Assembly: GCF_030028105.1 (NCBI RefSeq)
Contig: NC_092393.1
Span: forward strand, 55,493,121 to 55,557,120
Source of the DNA: Mobula birostris
Lineage: Eukaryota
Length of the DNA stretch: 64,000 nucleotides
Reading direction: 5' to 3'
In this document: one piece after another, positions 3,001 through 47,806 of the stretch
How positions within the stretch are numbered: the stretch's first letter is position 1
How the letters are laid out: each line of letters starts with the position of its first letter
Notes under the pieces: model-generated
What the model was told of the DNA's origin: nothing
What the model saw: the letters and a program-made list of their open reading frames with translations, nothing else
The model's database searches: none
Made by a program: the position numbers and the translations under genes

Positions 3001-4453
3001 ATGGTGGCTAATGTAATCCCGCTTTTTAAAAAAGGAGGGAGAGAGAAACCGGGGAATTATAGACTGGTAAGCCTGACATCGGTGGTGGGGAAAATGCTAG
3101 AGTCGGTTATCAAAGATGTGATAACAGCACATTTGGAAAGCAGTGAAATCATCGGACAAAGTCAGCATGGAGTTGTGAAAGGAAAATCATGTCTGACGAA
3201 TCTCATAGAATTTTTTGAGGATGTAGCTAGTAGAGTGGATAGGGGAGAACCAGTGGATGTGGTATATTTGGATTTTCAAAAGGCTTTTGACAAGGTCCCA
3301 CACAGGAAATTAGTGTGCAAACTTAAAGCACACGGTATTGAGGGTATGGTATTGATGTGGATAGAGAATTGGTTGGCAGACAAGAAGCAAAGAGTGGGAA
3401 TAAACGGGACCTTTTCAGAATGTCAGGCAGTGACTAGTGGGGTACCGCAAGGCTCAGTGCTGGGACCCCAGTTGTTTACAATATATATTAATGACTTAGA
3501 CGAGGGAATTAAATGCAGCATCTCCAAGTTTGCGGATGACACGAAGCTGGGCGGCAGTGTTAGCTGTGAGGAGGATGCTAAGAGGATGCAGAGTGACTTG
3601 GATAGGTTAGGTGAGTGGGCAAATTCATGGCAGATGCAATTTAATGTGGATAAATGTGAGGTTATCCACTTTGGTGGCAAGAACAGGAAAACAGATTATT
3701 ATCTGAATGGTGGCCAATTAGGAAAAGGGGAGGTGCAACGAGACCTGGGTGTCATTGTACACCAGTCATTGAAAGTGGGCATGCAGGTACAGCAGGCGGT
3801 GAAAAAGGCGAATGGTATGCTAGCATTTATAGCAAGAGGATTCGAGTACAGGAGCAGGGAGGCACTTCTGCTGTTGTACAAGGCCTTGGTGAGACCACAC
3901 TTGGAGTATTGTGTGCAGTTTTGGACCCCTAATCTGAGGAAAGACATTCTTACCATAGAGGGAGTATAAAGAAGGTTCACCAGATTGATTCCTGGGATGG
4001 CAGAACTTTCATATGATGAAAGACTGGATCGACTAGGCTTATACTCTCTGGAATTTAGAAGATTGAGGGGGGATCTGATTGAAATGTATAAAATTCTAAA
4101 GGGATTGGACAGGCTAGATGCAGGAAGATTGTTCCCGAAGTTGGGGAAGTCCAGAACGAGGGGGTCACAGTTTGAGGATAAAGGGGAAGCCTTTTAGGAC
4201 TGAGATGAGGAAAAACTTCTTCACACAGAGAGTGGTGAATCTGTGGAATTCTCTGCCACAGGAAACAGTTGAGGCCAGTTCATTGGCTATATTTAAGAGG
4301 GAGTTAGATATGGCCCTTGTGGCTAAAGGGATCAGGGGGTATGGAGAGAGGGCAGGTACAGGGTTGGATGATCAGCCATGATCATACTGAATGGCAGTGC
4401 AGGCTTGAAAGGCCGAATGGCCTACTCTTGCACCTATTTTCTATGTTTCTATG
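3001..4453 (+). mobile_element. Young 5'-truncated CR1 LINE, ORF2 reverse transcriptase (premature stop at 3967-3969)
   Basis: 322-aa ORF with [50 protein letters not shown]; 3' tail TTCTATGTTTCTATG. Confidence 0.95.
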
Positions 4454-4499
4454 ATACTTCAATAAAAATCGGTAAGATTCGAAGGAGATATGCTGAATT

Positions 4500-5040
4500 C
4501 CTTTAGCCTCCCGATGGAGTAGAGGCCTTGGTGAGCTTTCTTGGCTGAGACGTCAATGTGCTTGGACCAGGGCAGACTATTGTTGATATCCACAGCCAAA
4601 AACTTGAAGCTCTCCGCCCTCTGAACTCCAACCCCATTGATGCAGACAGGAGCACGTGCACCACCTCCCTTTCTGAAGTGAGTGTTTCATTGCCATTGAG
4701 GGAAAAGTTGTTGTCATGACACCGTGTCACATGACTCTCTATCCCTTTCCTGTACTCTGGCTGGTCGTTATTTGAGATGCGGCCCACCAGGGTGGATTCA
4801 TCAGCAAACCTGCAGATGGAGTGACAGCAGTATCCGACCACCCAGGGAGTGTACAGGGAGTAGAGCAGGGTGCTGAGGATGCAACATTGTGGAGCACCAG
4901 TGTTTAGAATAATCATGCTGGAGGCGTTTCCGCCATCATTACTAATTATTAATCACAGTCTGTTGGTCAGGAAGTCGAGGGTCCAATTGCAGTGGACGGT
5001 GTTAGCTCCCAGGGCCCAGAGTCTGGTGATGAATTTGCTA
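4500..5040 (-). mobile_element. Rex1/Babar LINE RT fragment
   Basis: Minus ORF NTGAPQCCILSTLLYSLYT...RFADESTLVGRIS. Confidence 0.8.
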
Positions 5041-5954
5041 TGTAACTTCGGGAACAGTAGTTACTACTGAATCTTTGTGAATTGACATTCCATCATTAGC
5101 GTAAAGTCAGTTAAAACTCCTGAGGCAAACTCCTAATTTATGATAGCACAGATATATAATCCACACTTTGCTAATTTCATATTTATACTGCAAGGATTGT
5201 ACTAGTTACCTGTAAGTGGTCACATACTGACACCAAAGGCCATCCAGGATTACTCTCTTTGCTGAGAAGGAGGATGAGCGGTGATTTTCTAGAGGTGTAC
5301 AAGATGATAACTGGCATGGATCAAATGGACAGCCTGAGACCTTTTTCCCAGGGCGGGGATGGCTAATACAGAGGCATAACTGCGAGGTGTTTGGAGGAAA
5401 GTATGGGGGGGCGGGGTGCATTTGCTTCAACGTTCCAAAGAAGTGCTGGGAGGTTAATTGCTCATGGTGTGGTGGTTATCACATTGCCAGCATTTACTGA
5501 TCAGGGCTCAATTCCCGCTGATGTCCGCACGGAGTTTGCATGGTCTCCCCATGACCACGTGGGTTTCCTCCGACATTCCAAAGATGTACGGTTGGGGTTA
5601 GAGAGCTCTGGGCATGCTATGTTGGCACCAGAAGCTCGGCGACACTTGCCGGCTGCCCAGTACAATCCTCAGTGATTTGGTTTGATGCAAATGCCACCGT
5701 TCGCTGTGTTTATCTATGTACTGTACATGCGACAAGTAAAGCAAGTTATAATCTCTTGGTGGCGGGGAATCAGGTAGGGTAGAGAGGGTGGGAATATGAG
5801 AGAGACTACAGGGAGAGTGGGTGAGTGGGAAGAATCATTAGAGAATCAATAGCCAAGTCACCTTCTAGATCATAAGAAAATATGAATATATAAGATTGTT
5901 AGGCTGATGGCAAACAGAGTAGGCATATTTGGCTTACTTTCAAATCTCTTACTG

Positions 5955-6100
5955 GCTCTTCCTTCAGTTAGTCCTGACGAAGGGTCTCAGCCTGAAACGT
6001 GGACTGTACCTCTTCCTAGAGATGCTGCCTGGCCTGCTGCATTCACCAGCAACTTGGATGTGTGTTGCTTGAATTTCCAGCATCTGCAGAATTCCTCGTG
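5955..6100 (+). mobile_element. Penelope pLTR-derived repeat with hammerhead motif (cleavage triplet mutated to GTG)
   Basis: AGTC-CTGACGA-AGGGTCTCAGCCT-GAAAC-GTG-GACT at 5970-6005, followed by the family tail gatgctgcctggcctgctg...ccagcatctgcagaatt. Confidence 0.75.
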
Positions 6101-6519
6101 TAGGCATATTTTGGTCTTTTTCCTGATGTAATAAGTGGTGTGTCAGATTGACGCCAGGGCCTCAAATAGTTACATAAATGAGCAACACACACGAAATGTT
6201 GAAGGAACTCAGCAAGTCAGGCAGCATCAATGGAGAGGAATAAACAGTTGACAATTCTGGACAAGACCCTTCATCAGGACTGGGGGAGGAAGCCAGAATA
6301 AGAAGGTGGGGTTAAATGACATGGACGAGGGCACCCAAGTGTTGTCTACTAAATATACTGACACTACAGAGAACTAAGTTGTGAGGTGCTAACAGCAAAG
6401 GTATTTACTGTAGATAAGTTACATGAGTACACAAAGATCTGATAAACGGAGCTTCACGTGGGAAATGGTGGAATTGTTTATTGGGCAGGGGAAAAATGCG
6501 GAAAAAAAAAACTTGCCCA

Positions 6520-6705
6520 ATCACAAGCAGAAGAAATTCTGCAGATGCTAGGAATCCAAGGCAACACACACACAAAATGCTGGAGGAACTCAGCAGGCCA
6601 GGCAGCTTCAATGGAAAAGAGTACAGTCAATGTTTCGGGTCGAGACGCTTCATCAGGAACCTGGTGAAGGGTTGTGCCTGAAATGTCAACTGTACTCTTT
6701 TCATA
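6520..6705. mobile_element. Penelope pLTR-derived inverted-repeat element
   Basis: acacacaaaatgctggaggaactcagcagg...gtttcgggtcgagacgcttcatcagg followed by a partial inverted arm that is cut by a CR1 tail. Confidence 0.7.
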
Positions 6706-7182
6706 GAAACACAGAAAATAGGTGCAGGAGTAGGCCATTCAGCCTTTCGAGCCTGCACCGCCATTCAGTACGATCATGGCTGATCATCCAACTCAGAACC
6801 CTGTACCTGCCTTCTCCCCATACCCCCTGATCCCTTCAGCCACAAGGGCCATATCTAACTCCCTCTTAAATATAGCCAATGAACTGGCCTCAACTGTTTC
6901 CTGTGGCAGAGAATTCCACAGATTCACCACTCTCTGTGAAGAAGCTTTTCCTAAAAGAATCTTCTAAATTCCAGCGAGTATAAGCCTAGTCGATCCAGTC
7001 TTTCATCATATGAAAGTCCTACCATCCCAGGAATCAATCTGGTGAACCTTCTTTGTACTCCCTCTATGGCAAGAATGTCTTTCCTCAGATTAGGGGACCA
7101 AAACTACACACAATACTCCAGATGTGGTCTCACCAAGGCCTTGTACAACTGCAGTAGTACTTCCCTGTTCCTGTACTCGAAA
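6702..7182 (-). mobile_element. Young CR1 3' fragment with an internal deletion (same family as 3001-4453)
   Basis: Reverse complement of the CR1 3'UTR and FEYRNREVLLQLYKALVRPHLEYCV. Confidence 0.9.
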
Positions 7183-7639
7183 GCATTCCGTTTGGATGAG
7201 TAACTGCTCTGCATGAGACCGCAAGAAGCTGGTGAGTTGTGCTCACAGCTCAGCGCATCACAGCAACCAGCCTCCCCTCTGTGGGACACTTCTCGCTTCC
7301 TCAGTAAAGCAGCCAACATAATCAAATACCCCACCCACCCTGAACTCTCTCTCTTCTCCACTCTCCCCTCTCCCATCAAGTGGAAGATACAAAAGCCTGA
7401 AAGCTCGTCCCACCAGGCTCAAGGCCAGCTTCCATGACACCGTTATCAGACTGTTCAACTGACCTCTTGTGTGATAAGATGGACTCTTGCTCTCACAGTC
7501 TACCTCAATATGATCTTACACTGTATTATCCACCTGCACCGCACTTTCACTGTAGCTGTAACGCTTTATTCTGCATTCTATTATTATCTTATTTTGTTCT
7601 ACCTCAATATACTGTAATGAATTGATCTGATAAACAGCT

Positions 7640-8017
7640 GAGATGGTGTGGTGGAGATGCGTCTCTACCAAAGGAGGTGTAAGGTGCTCCTGCCCTCCAG
7701 TAGCCTGCAGGTCACCCTTGGACAAGGTGTAGCACCTGCTTAGCACCCCAGTTGGGGTCATATGAAGCCATGGGAGCAGGTGATGGATGGTCATATGAGC
7801 AGCTGGTACATATCACAAGTCCCGGTTATGCGACCACTGACACCAGGAAGACAGTCGTTGAAGAGTATTGATAATGGCTGGGGTCGTCCATCTTGCAAAG
7901 ACACGCACCAGAAGAAGGTGATGGCAGTCCACTTCTCTAGAAAAATGTGCCAAGGATAATCATGGTCAAGACAATGATCACCCACATCATATGACACTGC
8001 ACATAATGATGATGATG
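7640..8017 (+). mobile_element. Non-autonomous RTE-related interspersed repeat; copies at ~41178-41505 and ~42940-43296
   Basis: Three colinear copies (ggtggagat..tctctaccaaag ... catggtca...cacataatgatgatg) ending in (ATG)n/(ATA)n tails; gaaggcaatg/gaaggtgatggcag..ccact segment resembles RTE-type 3' ends. Confidence 0.65.
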
Positions 8018-8323
8018 AATCAGTATGCAAGGCAAACTTTTCTCTGTCTCTTGGTACATGATAATAATAATAATCCATTCCAATGTCAATACTGAACTAT
8101 TCACCTGGATTATTGTGCTCAGCTGTCAAGAGTATGATTTGAACGCACAGTTTTAAGGGCTGTTCACCACTGATATATTGGCCTGTCACAGAAACTTCAA
8201 TTCCTATATATTCTGCAACTGTTTTATTCTGCATTTAGGGGGAAAAAAGTTTTGCCTTTGTGTGTGGATTGCATGAAAAATAAACAGTGGCCTAATCTGA
8301 AGTGGTATGGTTTGTTTAAAAAA

Positions 8324-8508
8324 GAGGAATTCTGCAGATGCTGGAAATTCAAGCAACACACATCAAAGTTGCTAGTGAATGCAGCAGGCCAGGCAGCATC
8401 TCTAGGAAGAGATGTTTCAGGCCGGGACCCTTCATCAGAAACGTCGACTGTACCTCTTCCTAGAGATGCTGCCTGGCCTGCTGCGTTCACCAGCAATTTT
8501 GATGTGTG
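8324..8508. mobile_element. Palindromic Penelope pLTR-derived element
   Basis: Arms cacacatcaaagttgctagtgaatgcagcaggccaggcagcatctctaggaagag / ctcttcctagagatgctgcctggcctgctgcgttcaccagcaattttgatgtgtg are reverse complements. Confidence 0.8.
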
Positions 8509-9681
8509 ATGGTGGTATGGTTATTGGTGTTTTGCTCTGCGCTGTCTCTGCACTTACAGCTCGCTCCCAGCAGGAGGAGCTCATCCTCTGTCTAATGTCC
8601 AGGGATTCTGCAATCTTTGCTGTCAGCTGTAGTTGTGGGTCTTCATGGAGCTGGGTCAGAGGACTGTTTCAGATACCTTTTTTTTCTAAAAATGGAGGGT
8701 ACAAGCAGACCTCTTCATTCATAGACTAGTGAGTGTTTACCTAGCATTTATGGAATCTGTTTTACAGCATCACAAAAGATTTTTAAAATCCTGTGAAGTA
8801 AAATTAAAGTTTCCGTTCTAAGCTAATTTTTTCGTTCAGGTGATTGAGACTAGAACTAGAGGCCATAAAGGCCCCTTTGCCTTTCTACCGTCAGGCAGGA
8901 GACTCCAATGCACGAAAACAAGAATGGTCAGGATGGGAAACGGCTTCTTCCCTCAGGCCATTAGGCTTCTCAACTCCTTGCCACGTTGAATTCAAAGTGT
9001 CGCTGGTTAATCTGTTCTGTACCTTGCAATATCTAATGTATGCACTTTAGTTAGTTTGTTTATTTATGTGTAATCTATCTGTAGATTTCATCCTTACTTT
9101 CATAAGTTATTATATATTATGTGTGTTATGTGTACTACAGTGCTTAATCCCCTGGTTTGGAGAAACGTCTCATTTGACAGAATACATGTATATAGTTAAA
9201 TGACAATGGAGAGCATCCTACCAAACCACATCACTGCTTGGTATGGAAACTGCCCTGCAGCAGATGGGGAGGCTCTCCAAGGGGTAGTCAAAGCTGGCCA
9301 ATGCAACACTGGCACCAGCCTGTCTGCCAACAAGGACATATTTACTGAAAGGTGCTGGAAAAGGGCCAGTAACATCATGAAGGATCTCACATACCCTGCT
9401 CAAGGACTGTTTGTCCCGCTCCCATCAGAGAGGAGGCTATGTAGCTTTCACACCAGGACCACCAGACTCAAAAATAGTAACTTTCCCCAAGCTTACTGGC
9501 TGATCGACAATGGCAGTCAGAATGAGAAGCAGTTTCTTCCCTCAGGCCATTAGTCTTCTGAACTCCCTGCTGCTTCGCGTTCAAAGTGTCACTGGTTAAT
9601 CTGTTCCAGTACAATAGTTAAAAATAATATAGCTTGTAATCTACATGTGATTCATCTGTAGATTTTATCCTTACCATCATA

Positions 9682-14024: not shown

Positions 14025-15066
14025 ACTCTCTCTACACTCTAGAACATAGAGTAGATAGTGTGTTACACCTGACCTCAACTTTCTCTATCCTCTAGAACAT
14101 AGAGTAGATGGTGTGGTACACCTAGCCCCCCAATCTCTCTGTACTCTGGAACATAGAGAGTAGAGGTGTGGTACACCTGACCCCCTCCACTCTCTCTGTA
14201 CTCTAGAATATAGGGTAGATGGTGTGGTACCCCTGACTTCCCCACTCTCTCTGTACTCTGGAACATAGACTAGATGGTGTGGTACACCTGACTCCCCCAC
14301 TCTCTCTGTACTCTAGAACATAGATTAGATGGTGTGGTACACCTGACTCCCCCACTCTCTCTGTACTCTAGAACATAGATTAGATGGTGTGGTACACCTG
14401 ACTCCCCCACTCTCTCTGTACTCTAGAACATAGAGTAGATGGTGTGGTACACCTGACTCCCCCACTCTCTCTGTACTCTGGAACATAGACTAGATGGTGT
14501 GGTACACCTGACCCTCCCCCACTCTCTCTGTACTCTAGAACATAGAGAGTAGATGGTGTGGTACACCTGACTCCCCCACTCTCTCTGTACTCTAGAACAT
14601 AGAGAGTAGATGGTGTGGTACACCTGACTCCCCACTCTCTCTGTACTCTAGAACATAGAGAGTAGATGGTGTGGTACACCTGACCCCCTCCACTCTCTCT
14701 GTACTCTGGAACATAGAGAGTAGTTGGTGTGGTACACCTGACCCCCTCCACTCTCTCTGTACTCTGGAACATAGAGAGTAGATAGTGTGGTACACCTGAC
14801 CCCCCCCCCTACTCTCTCTGTACTCTAGAACATAGAGAGTAGATGGTGTGGTACACCTGACTCCCCCACTCTCTCTGTACTCTAGAACATAGAGAGTAGA
14901 TGGTGTGGTACACCTGACCCCCTCCACTCTCTCTGTACTCTAGAACATAGAGAGTAGATGGTGTGGTACACCTGACTCCCCCACTCTCTCTGTACTCTAG
15001 AACATAGAGAGTAGATGGTGTGGTACACCTGACTCCCCCACTCTCTCTGTACTCTAGAACATAGAC
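14025..15066. repeat. Minisatellite, about 18.5 copies of a 55-57 bp unit
   Basis: Unit CTCTCTGTACTCTAGAACATAGA(GA)GTAGATGGTGTGGTACACCTGACTCCCCCACT repeated head-to-tail without spacers. Confidence 0.97.
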
Positions 15067-34015: not shown

Positions 34016-34864
34016 AACCGCGCACTGAACTGGATGAATCCGAGGATGACACACCCCTATCTTCTCCAGCACTCAGACACGTTCTGTTATTCCTGTGGTG
34101 TGGGTCTTCAGTTACTAGACTGGGGATCCAGCAGACGGGTGAGCTAATAATTGCGGAAGGTAAGGAGTTAACCGAATGATCCGGAGTCAAAGTTCAAAGT
34201 AAATTTATTATCACCACATGCAACCCTGAGATTCATTTTCTTGTGGGCATACTCAATACATCCGCAACAGAATAATAATCATAATAGAATCAGCGAAAGA
34301 CCGCACTGACTTGGGCGTTCAACCGGTGTTCCAAAAAAATAGAAAAAAGAAGGGAATAATACATAAATAAATGATAAACATGAGATGAAGAACCGCTGAA
34401 AGTGAGTCCATAGGTTGTGGGAACGCCTGGGTGATGGGGCAAGTGAAGGTGAGTGGAGTTATCCTCTTTGGTTCAAACGTCTGATGTTTGAGGCGTAATA
34501 GCTGTTCCTGAACCTGGTGGTGTGAGTCCTGAGACTTCTGTACCACCTTCTTGATGGCAGCAGCGAGAAGAGAGCGTGGCCTGGGTGGTGGGCGTCCCTG
34601 ATGATGGATGCTGCTTTCCTGCGTCAACACTCCATGTAGATATGCTCCATAGTGGGGGGGGGGGAGAGTTAGTTTTACCCATCATCGACTGGGCTGTACC
34701 AACTACTTTTTGTAGGGTTTTCCATCCAGGGGCATTGGTGTTTCCATACCAGGCTGTGATGCAGCCTGTCAGCACACATCCATAGAAGTTTATCAACGTT
34801 TCAGATGTCTCTTCGAATCTTCGCAGACTCCGACGCAAGTAAAACCAGCATTAATGAAAATGGC

Positions 34865-35080
34865 AAACAACAGGAATTCTGCAGATGCTGGAAATTCAAG
34901 CAACACACATCAAAGTTGCTGGTGAACGCAGCAGGCCAAGCAGCATCTGTAGGAAGAGGTGCAGTCGACGTTTCAGGCCGAGACCCTTCATCAGGACTAA
35001 CAGTCTGAAACGTCGACTGCACCTCTTCCTACAGATGCTGCTTGGCCTGCTGCGTTCACCAGATACTTTGATGTGTGTTG
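34865..35080. mobile_element. Palindromic Penelope pLTR-derived element
   Basis: Two inverted arms around a short spacer at ~34975-35004. Confidence 0.85.
34963..34998 (-). ncRNA. Minimal type I hammerhead ribozyme motif (core intact)
   Basis: Minus strand AGUC-CUGAUGA-A-GGGU(CUCG)GCCU-GAAAC-GUC/-GACU: stem I AGUC:GACU, both conserved cores, GUC triplet, palindromic ACGU stem III. Activity untested. Confidence 0.7.
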
Positions 35081-36620
35081 TTTTAATGAAAATCGATTCG
35101 GGCGATTTGGTTTGCGCCGTGTCACCTTCTGTAATTTGTCATCTTACTGCCATTGACTGAGGAAACGTTAACCCAAGAGACTTTGCAGAGGCTGGAAGTT
35201 TTGATCAGCAATGCCAAGTACTGGAGGACCATCTATGCAGGTGAACAAACAGTTGGGTTTTCGGGCCGGGATCCTTTCTCAGAACTGGAAGGGAAGAGGG
35301 AAGAAGCCAGGATAGGAAAGTGGGGTGGGGGTGGACTGAGGTCTAAACTCTGAAGAATCCTGATTAAATGTTTCCGGTTACACACAAGGTTGACTTTAAG
35401 CAATGTGTGTGTTCCCTGCTGGCGGAGCCCACTTGTTCTGAAGGACACGCGAGAGTGGCGGGAACTTACATCACCCGGTTGCAGCGAAGAATCAAAGCGG
35501 AGCGCAGAGGGTGGTGATGGGCCTCACACACACTAGCACGTTGACAGCATCTGCGGAATCTGGACAGATTTGCAGCGTGTGGGAGGGCAACCTGGATGTA
35601 GCAATTGGGAACAGCCGTTTCACAACGCTTAGTTCGAAATGACTGCACCTCTTCCTACAGATGCTGCCTGGCCTGCTGCGTTCACCAGCAACTTTGATGT
35701 GTGTTGCTTGAATTTCCAGCATCTGCAGAATTCCTGTTGTTTTCGAAATTAACATCACTTTTCGTTGCAAAGTCATTCTGGCGATTCTAACAGCTCATTT
35801 TGTCCTTCATGAGAATAATCAACTGACGCGCCGTGCTCCAGCGGAGTAAGTATCCGCTGTCAGTTTCGGTAAAGACAATAGACGGGATGTTACAGAATCC
35901 GACGTGGAGAAGGATAGAACAATTCGAGAGACAACTCCCCGAATGACCAAAATAGAGTACAAGAGACAGGATGGGCCCAGCTCTGGTCACCTGCCTACAG
36001 GAAATAGATCAATAAAATCGGAAGAGTACAAAGAAAATTTACAAGGATGTTGCCTGGTCTTGAGTTATAAGGAAAGGTTGAACAGGACTTTATTTCCTGG
36101 AGTGTAAGAGCATGAGGGGAGATTTGACAGAGCTATACAAAATTATAAGGGATATAGATAGGCTAAATATAAGCAGGCTTCACCCCCCCCCCACCCCCAC
36201 CCCCACTCAGGCTGGGTGAGATTACAACTCAAGGGAATATGGGTTAAGGGTGAAAAATGAAATGTTTAAGGGGAACCTCCTCCTTCGGAGACTGGAACGA
36301 GCTGCAGGCGAAGTGGATGATGTGGGTTTGATCTCTACATTTAAGTTTGAGAGGGGTATGTGGGGTGCTATGGTTCAGGTGCGGGTTTGTAGGACTAGGC
36401 AGAATAATAATTCCACATAAGAATAACAGGACAAGAGCCTGTTTCTGTGCTGTAGTCAGTATTCATAGTGCTAGGGAAAATAAAAATGAGTGAAAAACAG
36501 CCAGCACCAAATATGTTTTTTTTTAAAAATCGATGTACAGTAGATGTTAACTGTTAAGAGAAGCGGGGTTCCTTCCTCGCGGTATGTTCATTGAGGTAGA
36601 AACGCCAGAGGAACTGGCTG

Positions 36621-36950
36621 CAGGTAAAGACGTAATGTTAACAGGAACAAGTTACATGTCTGAGCGCGGAAGTACGGAACAGAATCCCAAGACTAGAAGT
36701 CAATCTGTGGCGTCAACTAAAGATGATGATCCCTAACACTTTGAAGGCAACTGCACGGGCTACTGCCCTCGTGGCAAATGATGACAAATAATTTACTTTT
36801 ACTACATCACTGAATTTTACAGAAGTTTTGTTTTGTTTTAAATTTCTCCTTAATTCACCCCTGGGATGCCAGTTTCGTCATCTTTTGTCTACGTCGCCTC
36901 ATCTTCTGGGAGACCAACAGATCAAATGTTCTTGACACCAGTCTCCAAGG
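36621..36950 (-). pseudogene. Decayed duplicate of the P4HB last exon and proximal 3'UTR
   Basis: Colinear anchors shared with 42179-42550: CAGGTAAAGACGYAATGTTAA, AACAAGTTA, GATGRTGATCCCTAA, AACTGCACG, TGATGMCAAATA, TGAATTKTACA, TAATTCA, TTCGTCATCT, GTCTYCAAGG. Confidence 0.75.
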
Positions 36951-39021
36951 AAAAGGATGCCGCCAGAATCTCGAAGGTGGTTTAATTCACAAGTTAACAA
37001 CAGCTTCTTCCCTTCTGCCATCCGATTCCTAAATGGATATTGAACCCATGAACACTACCTCACTTTTTAAATATGTTATTTGCTTTACACTATTCTAATC
37101 TACTCAATGCACTTATTGTAATCTATTTATTTGTCCTATATTATCATGCATTGCATTGTACTGCTGTTAAGTTCACAAATTTCACGACACATGCTGGTGA
37201 TAATAAACCTGATTCTAGTACAGGAAAGGCTGGTAGTGGGTAACAGTTGGCCCAGATCGAATGCATCCTTGGTCGGTGAGAGTAACCAGTCCTGATTTCC
37301 TACTTTCAGCCCATATCACATTAAGCGCCACTGCTCCCTATACCTACCCAACTACTTAAATACTAGTGCACCTGCCTCAGCCACATTGGTCGGTGAGCAC
37401 CTCCTCTGGCGCCTCGTTCCATATACTCACCTCGTGTGTGGGGAAAAATGCCTTTCAACTTTTGGTCAATTGTTTCTTCCTCAGCCAAGTACAATTGTGG
37501 AAGGCAAACTACATTAACTTCAGATTTTTTTTTAAAAAAACGGTGCAGGAACTGAGGCGAATGTGGTGCACATGGAACTGTGAAAAGGCAGTTGGCAAGC
37601 TACTGTATAATAGGAACTTTGAGGAGATTTAAGACCATGCAGTCGACAACTGCAGCAGTGAGTGGTAGCGTTATTGGACCGCGGGGGGGGAGGGGTGTCC
37701 CTCTGGCTTCCACTCTCTTCCTTTCCAGGCACGATGAAGGGTCGCGGCCCCAAACTTCGACTTCCTTTCCATGGTTGCTGCCTGACCTGCTGAGTTCCTC
37801 CAGCATTTTACGTTAATAATTTCTTGCGTCTACAGTATGTTGTGTTTCACTATGAAGATTAATTTTAATATAAACCTCTGTACAAGATACGATTCTCAGT
37901 CTGCAGCTGACAAAACAGTGAATTGTGAGATTGACTCGAGGAAATGGTAGATGGGTCCCACCTGACAAGATGAAATTTAAAGGTTCTCGCTGAATACAAC
38001 AGTGGGCATATAGTTCGAAAATAGACTGAATGTAGAGGGTTGAGAGGTGACAATTTCAGTAGGGTGCAGCAGGAAATTCTGGACAGTCAGCAATGCAACT
38101 GGAAACCTGTAGTTGATCCAATAAAACCCAGTAAAGCAGGTGGCTACCTCACTCCTCTCACCTAGCCCAATTCAAAGCCTTTGCTGTGTGGAGACTGCAT
38201 GTGATCCCTAACCACTGGGGATCTGCAGATACTCATTTCCTCTTGCACTCTAGAGACATGCTGGTTACTAGATTAACCAGTCAATGGTTGATTACCTGTG
38301 GTGTAGGTGTACCCAGCCACATCCACACTCGTGGCTATGCCTGGTCACAACTGCTTTGCCTGGATGAGCCATTTTCCGCACCGAGGGCAACACAATGATT
38401 AGCATAACGCTTTACAGTAACAGCAATCACGAAATGGGGCTCGTACTTTGACAATCCGCCAACCTTCAGGTCGTGCTATTTAAGAATTTAGTGACTGTTT
38501 TGTACCTTGGCTGTCTGCAACGAATTGGTACGTTTTCCCCGCTCCAGGTTCCTCCCCCATTCTAAACAGATACGCTTGGCAAGTTTCAGGCTACCTCCAG
38601 GACATCCTCAGACTGTTGGTCATTGATGCAAACGAGCAGTTGCAGCAGTGTACCATTTACCGACCAATACCATCTGGAAGGACGGGAACACCACCACTTG
38701 GAAATCCCCTCCAAGTCACTCACCACCCTGACTTGGAAACACATCGCCATTCCTTGTCGCTGGGTCAAAATCATGGAATCCCCTCTCCAAGAGCACTATA
38801 GGTGTACCTACATCTCAGGGACAGCAGCGATTCGAGAAGGCAGCTCATCACCACCTTCCCAAGGGCAATTAGGGATGGGTAATAAATGCTAGTTTAGCTG
38901 GCAACGCCCACATTCCATAAATAAGAAATGACTGCTTCAATGTATACATGGTATAAAGCTAATTAACAGGACGGTCAGGGGAATTAATTAAAAGGTGCTA
39001 AATTACAGGTAAATTAGGAGT

Positions 39022-40065
39022 ATAGACATAGAATAGTACAGTACAGGCCCTTCGGCCCACAATGTTGTGCTGACCCTCAAACCCTGCCTCCCATATAAGC
39101 CCCCACCTTAAATTCCTCCATATACCTGTCCAGTAGTCTCTTAAATTTCACTGGTGTTTCTGCCTCCAGAATCGACTCAGGCAGTGCATTCCACGCACCA
39201 ACCACTGAGTAAAAACACTTCCTCTAATATCCCCCTAAACTTCCCACCCCTTACCTGAAAGCCATGTCCTCTTGTATTGAGCAGTGGTGCCCTGGGGAAG
39301 AGGCACTGGCTATCCACTCTATCTATTCCTCTTAATATCTTGTACACCTCTATCATGTCTCCTCTCATCATCCTCCTCTCCAAAGAGTAAAGCTCCTTTA
39401 ATCTCTGATCATAATCCACATTCTCTAAACCAGGCAGCATCCTGGTAAATCTCCTCTGTACCCTTTCCAATGATTCCACATCCTTCCTATAGTGAGGTGA
39501 CCAGAACTGGACACAATACTCCAAATGTGGCCTAACCAGAGTTTTATAAAGCTGCATCATTACATCGTGACTCTTAAACTCTATCCCTCGACTTATGAAA
39601 GCTAACACCCCATAAGCTTTCTTAACTACCCTATCCACCTGTGAGGTAACTTTCAGGGATCTGTGGACATGTACCCCCAGATCCCTCTGCTCCTCCACAC
39701 TACCAAGTATCCTGCCATTTACTTTTGTACTCTGCCTTGGAGTTTGTCCTTCCAAAGTGTACCACCTCACACTTCTCCGGGTTGAACTCCATCTGCCACT
39801 TCTCAGCCCACTTCTGCATCCTATCAATGTATCTCTGCAATCTTCGACAATCCTCTACACTATCTACAACACCACCACCCTTTCTGTATCTGCAAACTTG
39901 CCAACCCACCCTTCTACCCCCACATCCAGGTCGTTATAAAAATCACGAAAAGTAGAGGTCCCAGAGCCGATCGCTGTGGGACGCCACTAGTCACAACTCT
40001 CCAATCTGAATGTACTCCCTCCATCACGACCCTCTGCCTTTTGCAGGCAAGCCAATTCTGAATCT
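39022..40065 (-). mobile_element. CR1 LINE 3' portion
   Basis: 216-aa minus ORF with LYKTLVRPHLEYCVQFWSPHYRKD; upstream [16 protein letters not shown]. Confidence 0.92.
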
Positions 40066-41829
40066 GCAGGATTAACAGAATGGTTGAGCCAACAGATTTG
40101 ACAGGCTGAATGGCAAGCATCAAAGTACAAACATCAGCTGTTCTCCAAGTGCTCGATGGGAACATATTACAACAGAGGCCACAGTAGTGGACTGTGTCCA
40201 GCTTGTATCAGATGTCCTGTCTTGTCCGGTCCACGTGGTGGACGAAACTTCTAATGGCCTTCTAGGAACTCTGGCAGGTGTAAATTGAAAATAGTGGCTC
40301 AGACCCACTTCACCACCCTACATGCAGCAGAAACCATTACATTCTCATGGACACCAGAGCCAGCCACTCCTACTACAGCCTGTGACAGATTTGTGCCCAG
40401 GACCTCAAGAAGACAAAGCAGGTTGTGCCCAGGAATGCTGAAGGTGGGGATGCAACAGGGCAGCACAGTAGAGGAGCAATTAGCACAACACTATTACAGC
40501 ACCAGCAACCCAGGTTCTATTCCTGCTGTTGTCTGCAAGGAGTTTGTACATTTTCCCTGTGGCCATGGGTGTAAACAGGTAGTGCGGGCTCATTGGTCAG
40601 GAAGGACTCATTACCACTGTACATCTAAATTTAAAAAATATGAAGTAACCAAACAGCTGAGAACAGCTTCAATGACACTTGAGCTTGTCTGTAGGTTACA
40701 AACCCCCAATTACAAATGGACAACCTCCCATATTAAAGTCAAAAGTGATGCACACAAGTTTGTCTTTCAGATAAGCAGAATTCCTTTCTTTCTCGACTCG
40801 AGATTGTTCTTCATCAGTCTTATGCATTTGACTGTTCATTACAATAATATGGCAATGTTACCATATCAAGTGAGTGTACAATTCCAACTTGCGGACTAAA
40901 TCAACTACTGATGAACTGAAACTGGAACCGTGTGGAGATGGTCTGCAGAGAAAAGTGAAATCTGCAGATTTCAGATTTGGTACAGAATAGTGTGTGGAGT
41001 TTGTCTGATCATGTGACACATTTTTCCCATATTTACATTAATCAGAAAAATTGAACTAGAGGGTGAAGTGCAAAATAGGCTCAAAGTAACAAGTGGAATG
41101 GAACTGCCAAGGGCTAGCATAAACTCAATGGGCTGAATAATCTTTGCATAAGAAATACATCAGCTACTGCTGATACTTTGGGTGGCAGGGTGGAGATGTG
41201 TATCAAAAGAGGTGCAAAGTGCTCCTTCCATCCAATAGCCTCCTGATCATGTTTACGTGAAACCATGGGAGCAGGTGGTGGATGGTCATATGAGCAGCTG
41301 GTGCCTATCACAAGCCCTGGTAATGTGACCACTGACACCAGGCAGACAATCTCTGGAGTATTGATAATAGCTAGCATCATCCACCCTGTAAAGACATTGC
41401 CCAGAAGGCAATGTAGAAAAATTAGCCTGGATCTATCATGGTCATGAGACCACAATCATCCATGTGATATGACACAGCACATAATAATAATAATAATAAT
41501 GATGATAACTGTTGCTATTGCAAACTCCAAAATGCAGATTATGACTGAAGCAGATCCAATTGAGTTCACCATACGAGATAGTCAACAGATACCCAACTGA
41601 TGCAGCTCTATTCAAATCATTTGTGAGCATTTAGTCATTGGCCTCATACTTACCATGGGTAACATTTTACCACTGGCACCATACTTGTCATGGGAATCAC
41701 AACCCAAATACCTTTGGCTCAAGGGTGGGGGGGAGGGGGGGGGGGGGAGGAGAAGAGGAGAGAGAGAAAGACAGAAAAGACAACCAACCAGCTTGACAAA
41801 ATGCAAACAGGAGTCTCAGAATGGAAAAG

Positions 41830-41846
41830 TTTAATCTTTCTTTAAT
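41830..41846 (-). terminator. Candidate P4HB polyadenylation signals (two ATTAAA)
   Basis: tttaat at 41830-41835 and 41841-41846, ~620 nt past the stop, followed on the minus strand by a GU/U-rich tract. Confidence 0.55.
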
Positions 41847-42456
41847 TTCATCCTGGCCACCAAATGTTTGCCTCCATTTAAGCACATCGGAATGCTTGAA
41901 GAATTGCACAACTCATAGATGAAGCCCTCTCCCTATGCTTCATCTACTGCGTGATCCTTTCTACCCCACCCACCAAAAAAAACTGATCTTGGGTCCAGAT
42001 TTTAAAACTGAAATAGAAGAGTCCCTGAGTTACAAAACTAGATGCCTCTTCCTTTAAACTTCTGAACAACCCCAAAGCCCTCCCCCCCCTCCAATTTTTC
42101 CTCTTCCCCCAGCAGTGGCCTCTAGTTCACTCACCTCTATTTAGGCACTCAGACAAGTGCAAGAAAACCGTCCATCACCAGGTAAAGACGCAATGTTAAT
42201 ACAAACAAGTTAAAAATCTGTACAAAAGTACATTACATGAATCAGTAACAGGAAACAAAAAAGTCCAAAGTATAGATGTGGCTTGAACAATTAAGGATGG
42301 TGATCCCTAATAAATTAACAAAATGAAAACTGCACGATGTGCACTGACAATTGGCTGCATATTCCCTGGTTTTATCAACTTAGACTTGATGCCAAATATT
42401 TCATGTTTACTGCATTTTGAATTGTACAAAAAGCTGTAGTGTTTTTGGTTGCAATT

Positions 42457-42552
42457 TTATAATTCATCTTTAACATGATCAGCTTCTTCGTCATCTGATT
42501 CTCCATCTGTCTCTTCATCTCCCTCCTCATCCTCTTCCATGTCTTCAAGGTC
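42457..42552 (-). CDS. P4HB: P4HB exon 11 (last): acidic tail + KDEL
   Basis: tatag|DLEDMEEDEEGDEETDGESDDEEADHVKDEL*. Confidence 0.96.
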   Translation of the reverse strand, partial: DLEDMEEDEEGDEETDGESDDEEADHVKDEL

Positions 42553-44409
42553 CTATAGGACAGGAAGTAGGGGTGAGATAGAGGCAGCTTCCAGACAAGT
42601 TGTTCACAGTATTACATCAGACTCATCCCCACGCCAACCTCCCCATTTCCAGGAAAGTCCCACAACCCACCAATACTGGCAGTGCTTTGGAATGGGAAAG
42701 GCATCTGCAGACGTCACTTGCTAAACTCAGAGCACCAAATGATAGTAGCATTCTCAGCAGCCAAAGCCATCTTACTGAAAATAAAATCTGTTTCCCCACC
42801 CACTTTCCAAATGTTAAGGCAACATCCCAAGTTGCAAAGCTCAAGGTTCAATGTAAGCACCTCTTAGCTGGAACAGTGACACTGAACTGCCCACAGTGGA
42901 TAAAGGCTTAGGAACAGGTTATTAAATTAGATTATGGATATGGGTGGCAGGGTGGAGATACATCTCTACCAAAGTAGGCACAAGGCACTCTTTCCCTCCG
43001 TTAGCCTGCAGGTCACCCTTGGGCAAGGTGTAGCACCTGCTCATTCCCCTCTGCCCTATATCAGGGTCACATGAAGCCATCAGAGCAGGTGGTGGATGGT
43101 CAAATGAACAGCTGGTATATATCACAAGTCCTGGTTATGTGGCCACTGATGCCAGGCAATCACTGAACATTGATAAAGGACGGGGTCTGGCATCTTGAAG
43201 ACACTGCCCACTATTTATGTAGAAAAACAATTACTAAGAACAATCATGGTCATGAGACCATGATTGCCCACATCATACGACAGTACATAATGATGAGGAG
43301 TCTTTAAATTTTGGCTGGGCATCTCATAAAATCAGATTACTATGTGATTCATGTAGCAATCAATCTGGTGCTGATGCATCTAGATTTGTATACCTAAAGA
43401 TAAATCAACGAGTCAAAGGTTCAAAGCTCTGGTAATAGGTACTGACTTCACAATACTCTACACATCTCCCTTTCCACACTACAATGAAGTAATTGCAATA
43501 CTGTCTACCAGCAAGTGAATAACTTAACACAGCAGAGAGAACATTTCAAAGGTAGAGGGCAGGCAGGGGATTGGGACATTACCCAGCGACTATTCATACT
43601 GAAGACAAAAGCACAGCAATACACTCAAAGCGCATAACTGACTGAAGCTCACCACAAATTGCCCCAGAGCAAGCTGCAGTTAGCAGCAACCACATTAATC
43701 AACACTCAGTTAATTAGCCACAGCAGCCAGAACCATTTCAGCTCCTGGTTACAGGAAGGATCTCAGAAGGACACAAAAGCTTTAGCGAGTGGAAAAGAGG
43801 TTTCCCAGGATGCTGCCCAAATTTGAGAGCATGCCTTATGAGCAGAAATTGGACAAACTTCAGATGTTTTCTCTGGAACAGAACAGGCTGAGGGGAGACC
43901 TGAGAGTAGTGTAACATAGGGTAGATTTAGTACAAAGCCAGCTTCTCTCGGGGTCAAAATCTCTAACATGCCTTATGGTGAGGGGGACAAGTCCAAGGAG
44001 ATGCACGGGGCAGAGTTCTGTTTTTAAGTATACACTAGTGGGCTCCTGAAATGCACTGCTAAGGGTGGCGGCAGAGAAATACATGGCGTTTAAAAGGCAC
44101 ACGAATGCAGAGAATGGAGGGATACAGACAAAGTGGGCAGAAAGGATTAGTTTAGCCAGGCATTAAATTACTAGTTCAATTAGTATGGCACATCATGGGC
44201 TGAAGATCCAAAACCTGTGCTTTGGGTATGGCAGAGGCAGCACCTCTAATCTGGACAATGACTGGCCAAGGACTGTGCTTCCCACACAGTACCTGGCCAG
44301 ACTCCAAATCACCTTGCTGTGTTTCAGGCTGTTATCGTGGGAGGACCTTCTCTCCTTCCCCCAAAGCCCCAGGCCAACTAAACCAATCTGACCCCACGGT
44401 AGTACTCAC

Positions 44410-44496
44410 CTCCTCTGCAGCACCTCCATCTTTTCCTCCACTTTCTAAGAATTTGATGAATGCTTCAAGTGTTCTTTCACCATTGTAATCTATGAC
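44410..44496 (-). CDS. P4HB: P4HB exon 10
   Basis: gcag|[29 protein letters not shown]|gtgagt; 87 nt. Confidence 0.97.
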
Positions 44497-45749
44497 CTGC
44501 AAATACAAGTTCACATTTCAGGGAGAAATCAAGCATTTCAATACTCTGGTTACCAGTGACTTCATGTGATGTGGAAAAATCATTAAGAAGATTAAAGATA
44601 ACTCCTTCAAACTACATTTCATATTTCTAAATAAACTGAAATGCACATCAGAACATCCCTTCCAAAGCAGCATTTACCCCAGAGTTGCAGCTCTATAAAC
44701 TCAAGTTAGTTCACACTTGCGAGTACATGTTCAGTTCTGCTCGCCTCATTATAGGACAGTTGTGGAATCATTAGAAGTTACAGACGAGACTAACCAGGAT
44801 AAATAACAATCCTGGGAGGCAGGGTGAGGTGTGGGGAGAAAGGAGAATCACTAGGTCATAGGCAAAGCACTGGACAATAGAGTAGTGGGTACAATGCACA
44901 GCCAGAAGTGGTGGCAGAGGCTGGTTCAATAAGTGCATTTGGGACTCTTCGATAGGCACATGGATGAAAGAAAAAGTGAGGTTTATGGGCTATATAGGAG
45001 AGGGGGGCTGGATTGATCATAAAGTTTACATAGGTCAGCACAAAATCATGGGCTGAAGGACCAGTGTTGTACTATTCCATCTTAAACATTAGGGCCTATG
45101 CACATTAGTCGCCAAAGCACAACAGGTGGAACAAGCTATTGGAAAGGCAGATCACATGTAGAGCCTTTATTGTGAGGTTTGTGTACTGAAGTGAAAGTGA
45201 CATTACAATTATACAAAGCCTTCACCTGTAGTACATGTAGAATTTCTGTCCCCCACCACCCAAGATACACACTACATCTTAGCAAAGATCCATTAGACTT
45301 GTTACAGGACCACTGTGTTCATCAAAAGCGGAGATAAAGATAAGGGAAGATAGCTGTCCAAACTTACAAGAGATCTAACTAATACTTAGATCTGACAGAC
45401 TCAATGTTAGATGCTGGCAAGATGTTATTCTCTGGCTGAGAAGTCCAAACTGGTAGAGTAGCCAATCTCAGACTAAGAGGGAGGCTACTTGGAACATGAA
45501 TGGGAGAATTTGTTCCCAGGAGAGTGGCAAATCTTTTCCATTACCAGGCCAAGTCATCAAGGTCATTGAAAACAGATCATGGACTGACTGCAGGGTGAGA
45601 ATCAAGGGATATGGAGATAGTGGCAGAAGATGGCACTAAGGGAGATCAAGCAGATTTTGCAGCTGCTGAAAACCTTCAGCAACACATTACCACTCGACTT
45701 GAATTCCTCCAGCAGTTTGTGCACGTCTCCAAAGGAGATCAGATTGCTG

Positions 45750-46755
45750 ACCATAAGACATCGGAGCAGAATTAAGCCATTCTGTCCAGTCTTCACCATT
45801 CCATCACAGCTATTATCCTCTCACCCCATTCTCCTATGTTCACCCTGTAACCGTTGATGCCCTTACTAAGCAAGAACCTATCACCCTCCACTTTAAATAT
45901 ACCCAGTGACTTGGCCTCCACAGCTGTCTGACGCAATGAATTTGACAAGTTTGCCAGCCTCTGGTTAAAGACATTCCTCATCTGTTCTACAGGGATGTCC
46001 CTCAAGTCCTAGACTCCCTCATTATAGGAAACACCCTCTCCACATCCACTCTCTAGGCCTTTCAATATTTGAAAAGTTTTAATGATATCCCCTTGCATTT
46101 TTCCAAGTTCCAGTGAGTACAGGCCCAGAGCAACCACTCTTCATACATTAACCTTTTCATTCCTGGAAACATTGTGAACCTCTAGATCCTCACCAATGCC
46201 AGTACATCTTTCTTGGAAAAGGAGCCCCAAAACTGCTCGCAACAGCTAAAATGCAGTCTGACCAATGCTTGATAAAGCTCAGCATTATACCCTTGCTTTT
46301 GTATTCTAGTCCTCTTGAAATGAATGCTAACCTTGCATTTGCCTTCCTTACACTGACTCAACTTGCAAGTTAACCTTTAGAGACCCCTGCACAAGAACTC
46401 CCAAGTCTCTTTGCACCTGTAATTCCTGATTTCTCCTACTTAACAATTAATCTATACCTTTATTCCTTCTATCCCAACACCATATCCATCTGCTACATTG
46501 TCCATTCTCCTATTCTGTCCAAGCCCTTCTGCAGACACTCTGCCTCAACACCATCAGCCCCTCCACCCATCTTCGTATTGTCTGCAAACTTGGCTACAAA
46601 GTCATTAATTCCGCTTTCCAAATCATTGATGTATAACATGAAAAGAAGCGGTCCCAAGACCAGCCCCGGTAGCACACTAGTCAGTGGCAGCCAACTAAAA
46701 GCTCCTTTATTCCCACTCTGCCTCTTGCCAGTCAGTCAATCTTCTATCCATATTA
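45750..46755 (-). mobile_element. Old CR1 fragment in P4HB intron 9
   Basis: Minus ORF GLVLGPLLFMLYINDL..VAKFADNTKMGG and a CR1 3'UTR. Confidence 0.85.
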
Positions 46756-47170
46756 GTGGATCATGGGTTGTGGAGTGGTTTCAAAGTCTGATGGTCCATT
46801 CAGTTCCCATTTCTAAACCCTTATGTGACAACATTGAGTTGCATCTGATCATACAGTAATTCATAGTCTTACTACTCTAACTATTCAAAGTATGTTTAAA
46901 TATTCATTTACAGCACAGCACTTATCTAAGCCTCTATTTAAAATATTCAGAGTCAGTGGATAAGTTACTGTAATTCATGATTCTAAAAAAAGGAACAGGC
47001 CACCTCATTCCAGCAAAGGCAGTCACATCCAGCTTGAACTGAGCTATTTATAGCTGGAATGGAGGCTTAAATAGGCTGGTGGAGAAATAGCTAGGAATCC
47101 AAAGTCATCTCGCCTGCCCAGGAGCCAACGGCCATTACATGGTTGCTGAATCACGCTGATCATTGCTTAC

Positions 47171-47352
47171 CTTCTTCTCAGAGCCTGAAGGGAAGAACTT
47201 CAGTGTAGGGAAGCTGTGGATCTTCACAGCTTCAATTTCATTCGCTGTTGAGTCCATCTTTGAAATGACTATTTTCTCATCATCCTTGTATTTCTCTCCT
47301 AGAGATTCCCAGATCGGAGCAAGCTGTTTGCAGTGACCACACCATGGGGCAT
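47171..47352 (-). CDS. P4HB: P4HB exon 9 (a' domain active site WCGHC)
   Basis: cag|(Y)[60 protein letters not shown]|gtaagc; 182 nt. Confidence 0.98.
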
Positions 47353-47685
47353 CTGGGTAGAAAAAGCAGAAGCTTTATACAATGCATAATCTTAAATTTA
47401 CAATGGTACAAGTTTTATATAAATTTTAGTGCAATTTCTGTTCAGAACACCAAGGTTTAGGAGCTCCGCTCACCATTCACAATCCTACACTAATCACCAG
47501 ACATTTAGGTGGCACTCAGGAAACCCACGCTTGTCAGGGGAAAACAAGTTCTTTACAGACAGCAGCAAAATTGAACCCAGGTTGCGAATGCTGTAATAGT
47601 GTGTTATACTAAATGCTACATTTAATGCAAGATTCAAAGCTCAAGAGAAATTACTTAATTTAAAACTCAAATTTTTTAGACTTAC

Positions 47686-47806
47686 AGAATTCAACAAAAA
47701 CATCCTTTGTTTCATCGAAGGCAACTTCCTCAAAATTTTTGCCAACAAGGACCTTGACAGGTGCTTTGTTCCAGTCTTCAGGAATGTCTTGGCTCATGAG
47801 ATGAGG
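47686..47806 (-). CDS. P4HB: P4HB exon 8
   Basis: tttag|[40 protein letters not shown](Y)|gtaagt; 121 nt. Confidence 0.97.

Follow-up and report, generated by a model that had tools for sequence, protein, structure and literature searches.

The hammerhead motif and its surroundings

The window analysed here is a 64,000-nt stretch of the Mobula birostris genome (contig NC_092393.1, positions 55,493,121 to 55,557,120), and its features are collected in Table 1. It contains the last exons of a protein disulfide isomerase gene, which we take to be P4HB from its motifs, and several copies of a dispersed repeat, one of which carries an apparently intact hammerhead ribozyme motif. A ~58-bp tandem repeat with internal palindromic character was also observed at 14500-15030. 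Contigs from sequencing runs that we guessed were RNA extend over the gene's last exon and 3' UTR, as far as about 41850, and the insertion holding the motif lies ~6.9 kb beyond their end. In the interval 35100-43000, no contig connects the 3' UTR with the element, a result that carries no weight either way.

Table 1. Coordinates of features in the window.
Feature	Position	Strand	Remarks
Young-subfamily stub	5936..6096	+	From -38 onward; GUC mutated to GUG
Two older-subfamily stubs (6178-6281; 6524-6702)	6178..6702	-	Decayed cores
Young-subfamily head-to-head stub	8318..8511	-	Core damaged
Target-site duplication TTAATGAAAAT, left copy	34851..34861	+	11 bp
Direct pLTR arm, element ~-7 to +132	34862..35001	-	"Long" 3' end including ~35-nt tail
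Minimal type I hammerhead motif	34963..34998	-	Sequence and descriptor match
Inverted pLTR arm, ~+18 to +94	35005..35082	+	"Short" 3' end
Target-site duplication TTAATGAAAAT, right copy	35083..35093	+	11 bp
Decayed older copy	35250..35287	-	Without core or GUC
Simple insertion, same subfamily as focal copy, +28 to ~+129	35641..35741	+	Starts exactly at the predicted cut
Target-site duplication TTCGAAAT of the preceding insertion	35633-35640 and 35742-35749		8 bp
Last exons of protein disulfide isomerase, stop at 42460	42460..47806	-	WCGHC, thioredoxin domain, C-terminal KDEL

Element positions are numbered from the first C of CUGANGA (+0), which is window position 34994 on the minus strand. 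Stem I is then formed by -4 to -1 paired with +28 to +31, and the predicted cut follows +27, between 34967 and 34966. Read directly, the minus strand from 34998 to 34963 is AGTC CTGATGA A GGGT CTCG GCCT GAAAC GTC GACT, which comprises stem I AGUC:GACU, CUGAUGA, an extra A, stem II GGGU/GCCU with a CUCG loop, and GAAAC-GUC. Stem III is a loop-less ACGU palindrome, as in the minimal hammerheads of Penelope-like elements (PLEs). The core features of such ribozymes (CUGANGA and GAAA, an NUH triplet, and stems I and II) are all present; stem II includes two G-U wobbles, one of them G10.1-U11.1. A strict descriptor (stem I of 4 bp, CUGANGA, stem II of 4 bp, GAAA-NN-UH) matched the whole window once, at this motif, and had no match in 200 first-order Markov copies of the window. 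A looser core pattern matched eight times, against 1.4 expected, and an Rfam search found no hammerhead at E≤5. The sequence, layout and predicted cut site given in an earlier sequence-only reading of the window are correct by direct reading and descriptor. That reading had also listed ten further degenerate copies, all of which exist close to where it placed them; they are decayed or truncated, and every one fails the strict descriptor. It had overlooked the 83-nt inverted arms, the target-site duplication and one more copy, at 35641-35741.

The motif sits within a 221-bp head-to-head insertion (34862-35082) whose two arms form an 83-nt inverted repeat, the inverted arm pairing with the direct arm and covering the 3' half of the ribozyme. 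Within this insertion, the pairing probability of stems I and II is 0.0, and the predicted hairpin has an energy of -168 kcal/mol. The second arm is predicted to bury the focal ribozyme in a hairpin of ~80 bp, and the ribozyme of this copy is likely inactive at this locus.

The neighbouring insertion at 35641-35741 was noted for its start. The letters of its TTCGAAAT duplication are similar to the CGAAA of the ribozyme, and because of this resemblance the exact +28 start can be explained by microhomology. Copies of this start-at-cut class are rare across the genome.

The repeat is the pLTR of a Neptune-type Penelope-like element

Exact matches in the 4.0-Gb genome numbered 3,877 for a 31-mer of the motif and 55,607 for a 35-mer just downstream of it, which upholds the claim of a high copy number and places at least 55,607 pLTR arms in the genome. 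A 29-mer from the ORF start had 295 exact matches. At the first 30 loci listed, the upstream sequence extends to different lengths, through a 3' UTR rich in pyrimidines and on into frames for GIY-YIG and RT. A search with an RT fragment returned 24,677 candidates, and among the 150 that were scored, open frames were as long as 1,112 aa. Twenty long-frame loci were fetched, of which five have a hammerhead-bearing pLTR ahead of the ORF; at four of these five, both hammerheads were matched around the ORF, 3,510-3,725 bp apart. Copies of pLTR-ORF-pLTR structure with RT and GIY-YIG frames of >1,000 aa are present in the genome.

The parent element has a single ORF, RT then GIY-YIG, with its first ATG near +166, ~138 nt downstream of the cut. 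In the 1,015-aa frame at locus L153, Pfam RVT_1 (E 0.0027) and GIY-YIG (E 0.00094) were both below curated cut-offs, with their motifs visible, and a PDB sequence search with an RT fragment gave no match. The linker between RT and endonuclease, CKRNKCYTC, fits the CX2-5CxxC motif given for Neptune elements (PMC8557442). The repeat is the pLTR of an autonomous Neptune-type PLE together with its stubs, the Neptune assignment being based on domain order, linker and copy anatomy. We presume that repeats like this pLTR are typical of sharks and rays. Both pLTRs of an RT-endonuclease element carry the motif, and its identification as a type I minimal hammerhead like those of PLEs is supported. Its description as part of a non-autonomous, retrozyme-like family is not supported, as full-length pLTR-ORF-pLTR copies exist and the copies are 5'-truncated stubs with variable starts. 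Among full-length copies (ORFs of L151, L154-L157 and L159), some have an internal duplication of 207-213 bp in a proline/serine-rich N-terminal region and others lack it; the unit length is 3.7 kb with this duplication and 3.5 kb without it.

Decay, subfamilies and covariation

Inserted copies decay neutrally: CpG loss affected the catalytic G8 in 12 of 141 in-register young arms and each loop base likewise in 12 of 141, and because the loss is equal at G8 and in the loop, an intact copy means youth. The strict descriptor was passed by 78 of these 141 arms. Across subfamilies, the cores and stems are kept, while the flanks, loop 2 and N7 vary. The stem changes that separate subfamilies are all one-sided (G-C/G-U and U-G/U-A), and no two-sided compensatory change was found between amplified subfamilies. 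The G10.1-U11.1 wobble occurs in 125/141 young copies, with G-C in 14 and in about half of the older copies; the G10.1-C11.1 pair, a frequent but not obligatory feature of PLE hammerheads, is absent from the focal copy. A separate subfamily was observed with the same cores and stems, a UCCG/UCCA loop and other flanks (L152:-2641, L157:+462, L102, L168, L188, L356 and L378).

A compensatory stem I change had been claimed for the copy at 35250. This copy lacks the core and the GUC, and its U-A pair is the expected outcome of CpG decay. Of 60 older copies, 22 have A at +28 and an unchanged C at -1, and two show the T-A combination, so the apparent compensation is explained by CpG decay. A search for copies changed on both sides of one stem II pair gave 123 matches, mostly A-T double transitions, which were rejected as covariation since neutral decay also yields A-T double transitions. 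The sole clear two-sided change (G-C to U-A) is stem II GUGU/GCAC in a single duplicated locus, C17. The locus is an old stub, inserted in a LINE remnant, that has at least 30 segmental duplicates (L365-L377 and L385-L414; G000:C17 and C4456). A domesticated ribozyme in the C17 duplicated locus was considered and rejected, the core being kept in 13 of 30 paralogues and lost in distant ones.

Ends of the genomic copies

Copy anatomy was examined in 190 distinct arms, drawn from two downstream-pattern searches by using most of the first 100 places in each. The arms were picked by the downstream 35-mer; some are paired within one insertion, and such paired arms are not independent of each other; breakpoints are those of local alignments, and a few palindromic junctions are off by several bases. 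Target-site duplications measure 9-17 bp with a mode of 11-12, and the 3' ends are bimodal, at +94/95 and +129/130.

The 5' ends fall at +38 to +12 in 12 arms, +11 to 0 in 15, -1 to -5 in 30, -6 to -13 in 15, -14 to -100 in 17, -101 to -740 in 52 and beyond this in 49. Twenty of the 30 arms starting at -1 to -5 do so exactly at -3/-4. The cluster is also seen in non-inverted arms, with 12 starts in these 5 nt versus three in 27 nt and 10 in 87 nt flanking them, and in seven of the 12 the duplication abuts the arm.

A start at the predicted cut (+28) was found in only 2/190 arms. Seventy copies span the ORF start, and 44 of them reach +38; among these 44, none ends at +28, three end at -1 to -5 and 13 in +11 to -13, while 27 run beyond -13, three of them beyond -740. 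These counts indicate that integrated copies derive from uncut RNA, in agreement with PMC11167929. A cleavage footprint at +28, to which the copy at 35641 had pointed, was rejected on these counts (2/190 arms and 0/44 long copies). Genome-wide, one junction class gave 1,100 junctions at -4, 308 at +28 and 99 at +31, a rough comparison as the anchors differ. The 308 junctions at +28 were likewise rejected as cleavage ends, being mostly inversions with GAC(T) stem-I microhomology; 24 of 30 such loci were flagged as inverted and two more were recognized by inspection.

Head-to-head insertions join one short and one long 3' end in 46/49 cases; the remainder are two short-short insertions, one of them a locus-edge duplicate, and one long-long insertion. 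A duplication of at least 8 bp flanks 27 of the 49. At the subfamily site +45, the two arms match in 33 of the 43 pairs and are different in the other 10, indicating that many head-to-head insertions used two templates. With 33/43 pairs in agreement, one source RNA or fold-back copying remains common. In the head-to-head insertion L336, three private stem II changes are common to both arms, pointing to one template or to conversion between the arms.

Predicted folding of the ribozyme

For the isolated 36-mer, stems I and II are predicted with a probability of 0.5-0.7, and for a native copy starting at -4 with 0.84-0.97. When the RNA starts at -30, the tract from -19 to -7 is predicted to pair with 0 to +11, and the stems drop to 0.03. 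With sequence to +135 included, the stems are predicted at ~0.1 even when the RNA starts at -4. The upstream blocking hairpin is predicted in four of the five core-bearing copies folded (L153, L157, L022 and L013, not L152), and its loop, -6 to -1, coincides with the 5' end cluster. The minimum-energy dimer from a cofold prediction is not the catalytic fold.

A branch-point-like signal (TACTAAC/TACTCAC), a pyrimidine tract and a YAG were observed just before stem I (L153:3452-3473) in all subfamilies seen. Copies spliced from an upstream donor to -6 or -2 would share an upstream exon; none was found among the junctions listed, and the joints in contigs are not GT-AG.

Proposed mechanism and alternatives

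Taken together, we consider it very probable that the motif is the pLTR hammerhead of a Neptune-type PLE and that the focal copy is a 221-bp head-to-head stub, its ribozyme predicted to be locked in a hairpin and likely inactive. Such stubs could arise when the RT-endonuclease makes a staggered cut of ~11 nt at the target and primes cDNA on the two target strands, using a different internal start site for each, mostly with uncleaved element RNA as template. Two short cDNAs would then drop off or run off near the 5' edge of the hammerhead and be joined head to head via microhomology. Head-to-head insertion by self-priming has been proposed for related elements (PMC3846280); the discordant arms argue against pure self-priming as set out there, though most pairs share a source. 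The ribozyme of a source element most likely cuts only with help, either from a second copy through the ACGU palindrome or from the element protein. Cutting may further be confined to RNAs from which the upstream pyrimidine tract is absent, because predictions have this tract paired with the catalytic core.

Both an RT that drops off within the hairpin and an RNA with a defined start would fit the 5' end cluster at stem I. It is conceivable, if on balance unlikely, that there is a distinct RNA whose 5' end is the first base of stem I, set either by an initiator-type start (YYA+1GTCC) or by processing, and that the short copies are its run-off cDNAs. The ribozyme would then lie at the very 5' end of an RNA, where it could fold. 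The concentration of starts described above speaks for such an RNA (30/190 arms at -1 to -5, with 20 at -3/-4; 12 non-inverted copies in 5 nt versus three in 27 nt and 10 in 87 nt, seven of the 12 abutting the duplication; one junction class with 1,100 members at -4 across the genome), as do the predicted stem probabilities of 0.84-0.97 from -4 versus 0.03 from -30. In contigs from these putative RNA runs, other sequence is likewise joined at -4/-3; however, these contigs lack the power to show RNA ends and may mirror genomic stubs. The excess in ORF-spanning copies is broad, with 13/44 in +11 to -13 and only three at -1 to -5, and 27/44 run past it, which fits RT drop-off in the predicted -19 to +11 hairpin equally well. 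An excess of G before -4, as would be left by a cap, was not seen, the first 100 junctions listed being about half G and half A.

The reading as a retrozyme-like, non-autonomous family, with short hammerhead units amplifying through their own circular RNAs, is largely refuted, and we regard it as very improbable. It could draw on the excess of stubs over ORF-start copies by two orders of magnitude (55,607 versus 295 exact matches), on the intact motif in 78/141 in-register copies, and on animal retrozymes that a preprint derives from PLE pLTRs (10.64898/2026.07.22.740005). Yet the starts vary continuously into the 3' UTR, endonuclease and RT, the copy ends miss the cut, and each stub has its own duplication. 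Retrozymes as described in PMC7229834 are 150-450 bp tandem repeats between two hammerheads, and the units here are not; the 30 loci and 190 arms are single or head-to-head, direct hammerhead pairs in the family lie 3.5-3.7 kb apart, and the family includes an autonomous ORF.

Most improbable of all is a host-used focal ribozyme that trims or terminates P4HB read-through RNA: the motif is intact and, as the sequence-only reading had it, lies on the same strand as the upstream gene and hence sense to any read-through, but age alone leaves over half of young copies intact, PLE minimal hammerheads were inactive as monomers in vitro (PMC4209133), and a role in such RNA is unlikely because the motif is predicted to be fully buried in the hairpin of the insertion and lies ~6.9 kb past the 3' UTR contigs. 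In read-through RNA from this locus, the insertion would form a long double-stranded hairpin, and the ribozyme would not be free.

Relation to known systems

The motif closely resembles the minimal hammerheads of metazoan PLEs (Cervera and de la Pena 2014, PMC4209133), which are of type I with no stem III loop and a palindromic 15.2-16.2 pair, have an extra base between 9 and 10.1, are present in both pLTRs, and mostly occur as single motifs of truncated copies, with close opposite-strand pairs also found. It differs from those described there in its shorter stem II (4 bp) and in the G10.1-U11.1 pair of 125/141 young copies, and intact motifs number tens of thousands here, by extrapolation, versus 4,000-9,000 in coelacanth and Xenopus. 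For these ribozymes that study reports no monomer activity and weak dimer activity, and gives no in vivo evidence.

With Neptune elements of the endonuclease-bearing (EN+) type (Craig et al. 2021, PMC8557442; Arkhipova et al. 2013, PMC3846280), the element shares the RT, C-terminal GIY-YIG and CX2-5CxxC linker; it also has their partial tandems, an inverted copy truncated at its 5' side, a tail of 30-40 bp at one end and short duplications. Measured against those sources the element is not different in kind; what is added here is a figure for the one-end tail rule, 46/49.

In the Poseidon element PAc of Anolis (Frangieh et al. 2024, PMC11167929), the ribozyme is active only with protein and no RNA-seq ends fall at the cut. 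PAc resembles the present element in having two internal RT start sites a tail apart, in extending both target strands, and in using uncleaved RNA as the main template with no ends at the hammerhead cut. In contrast, the PAc ORF begins inside stem II, while the first ATG here is ~138 nt downstream of the cut, and in vitro PAc used the same start sites on both strands, while here a single insertion combines the two sites, one per strand.

Non-LTR retrozymes (Cervera and de la Pena 2020, PMC7229834; 10.64898/2026.07.22.740005) have in common with this family a type I hammerhead, high copy number and a link to PLEs; they consist of short units in tandem, have canonical or near-canonical ribozymes and form circular RNAs, whereas the family here consists of an ORF-bearing PLE and its stubs. 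In the pLTR intron of Drosophila virilis Penelope (PMC2377424; PMC4209133), the intron ends at the base of stem I, where the 3' splice-site-like signal of the present element ends too, here as a signal alone. Further sources on what is known and what is new are PMC6155905 and PMC6765202 (for Lunse et al. 2017). Neither the Mobula birostris family nor a 5' end cluster at stem I was found in the literature consulted; the supplements of PMC4209133 and of the preprint, which sampled one cartilaginous fish, may list the motif.

Significance

The motif is real and of a known kind, and at this locus the ribozyme is probably inactive. As a ribozyme discovery it is ordinary, minimal hammerheads being standard in PLEs. 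Its value lies in a very large and young natural data set on PLE questions that the literature leaves open: PMC4209133 and PMC8557442 leave open the in vivo job of the PLE hammerhead, and the origin of head-to-head insertions is also unsettled. Two footprints stand out, namely 5' ends at the 5' edge of the ribozyme and not at the cut, and different fixed 3' ends of the two arms, the arms often coming from different templates. The uncut-template, 5'-cluster and two-3'-end results are each directly testable in the in vitro system of PMC11167929.

A bolder reading, which we offer tentatively and consider doubtful, is that the hammerhead acts as a position-dependent switch. The pyrimidine tract of the pLTR would pair with the catalytic core and keep internal and 3' copies off, an RNA species starting at stem I would free the ribozyme, and the 5' ends at -1 to -5 would be the genomic record of that RNA end. 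The rule of one short and one long 3' end would then reflect a dimeric RT-endonuclease that primes each target strand at a different fixed site. If this were true, the still unsolved PLE cycle could be read from a single genome, by way of its tens of thousands of young copies.
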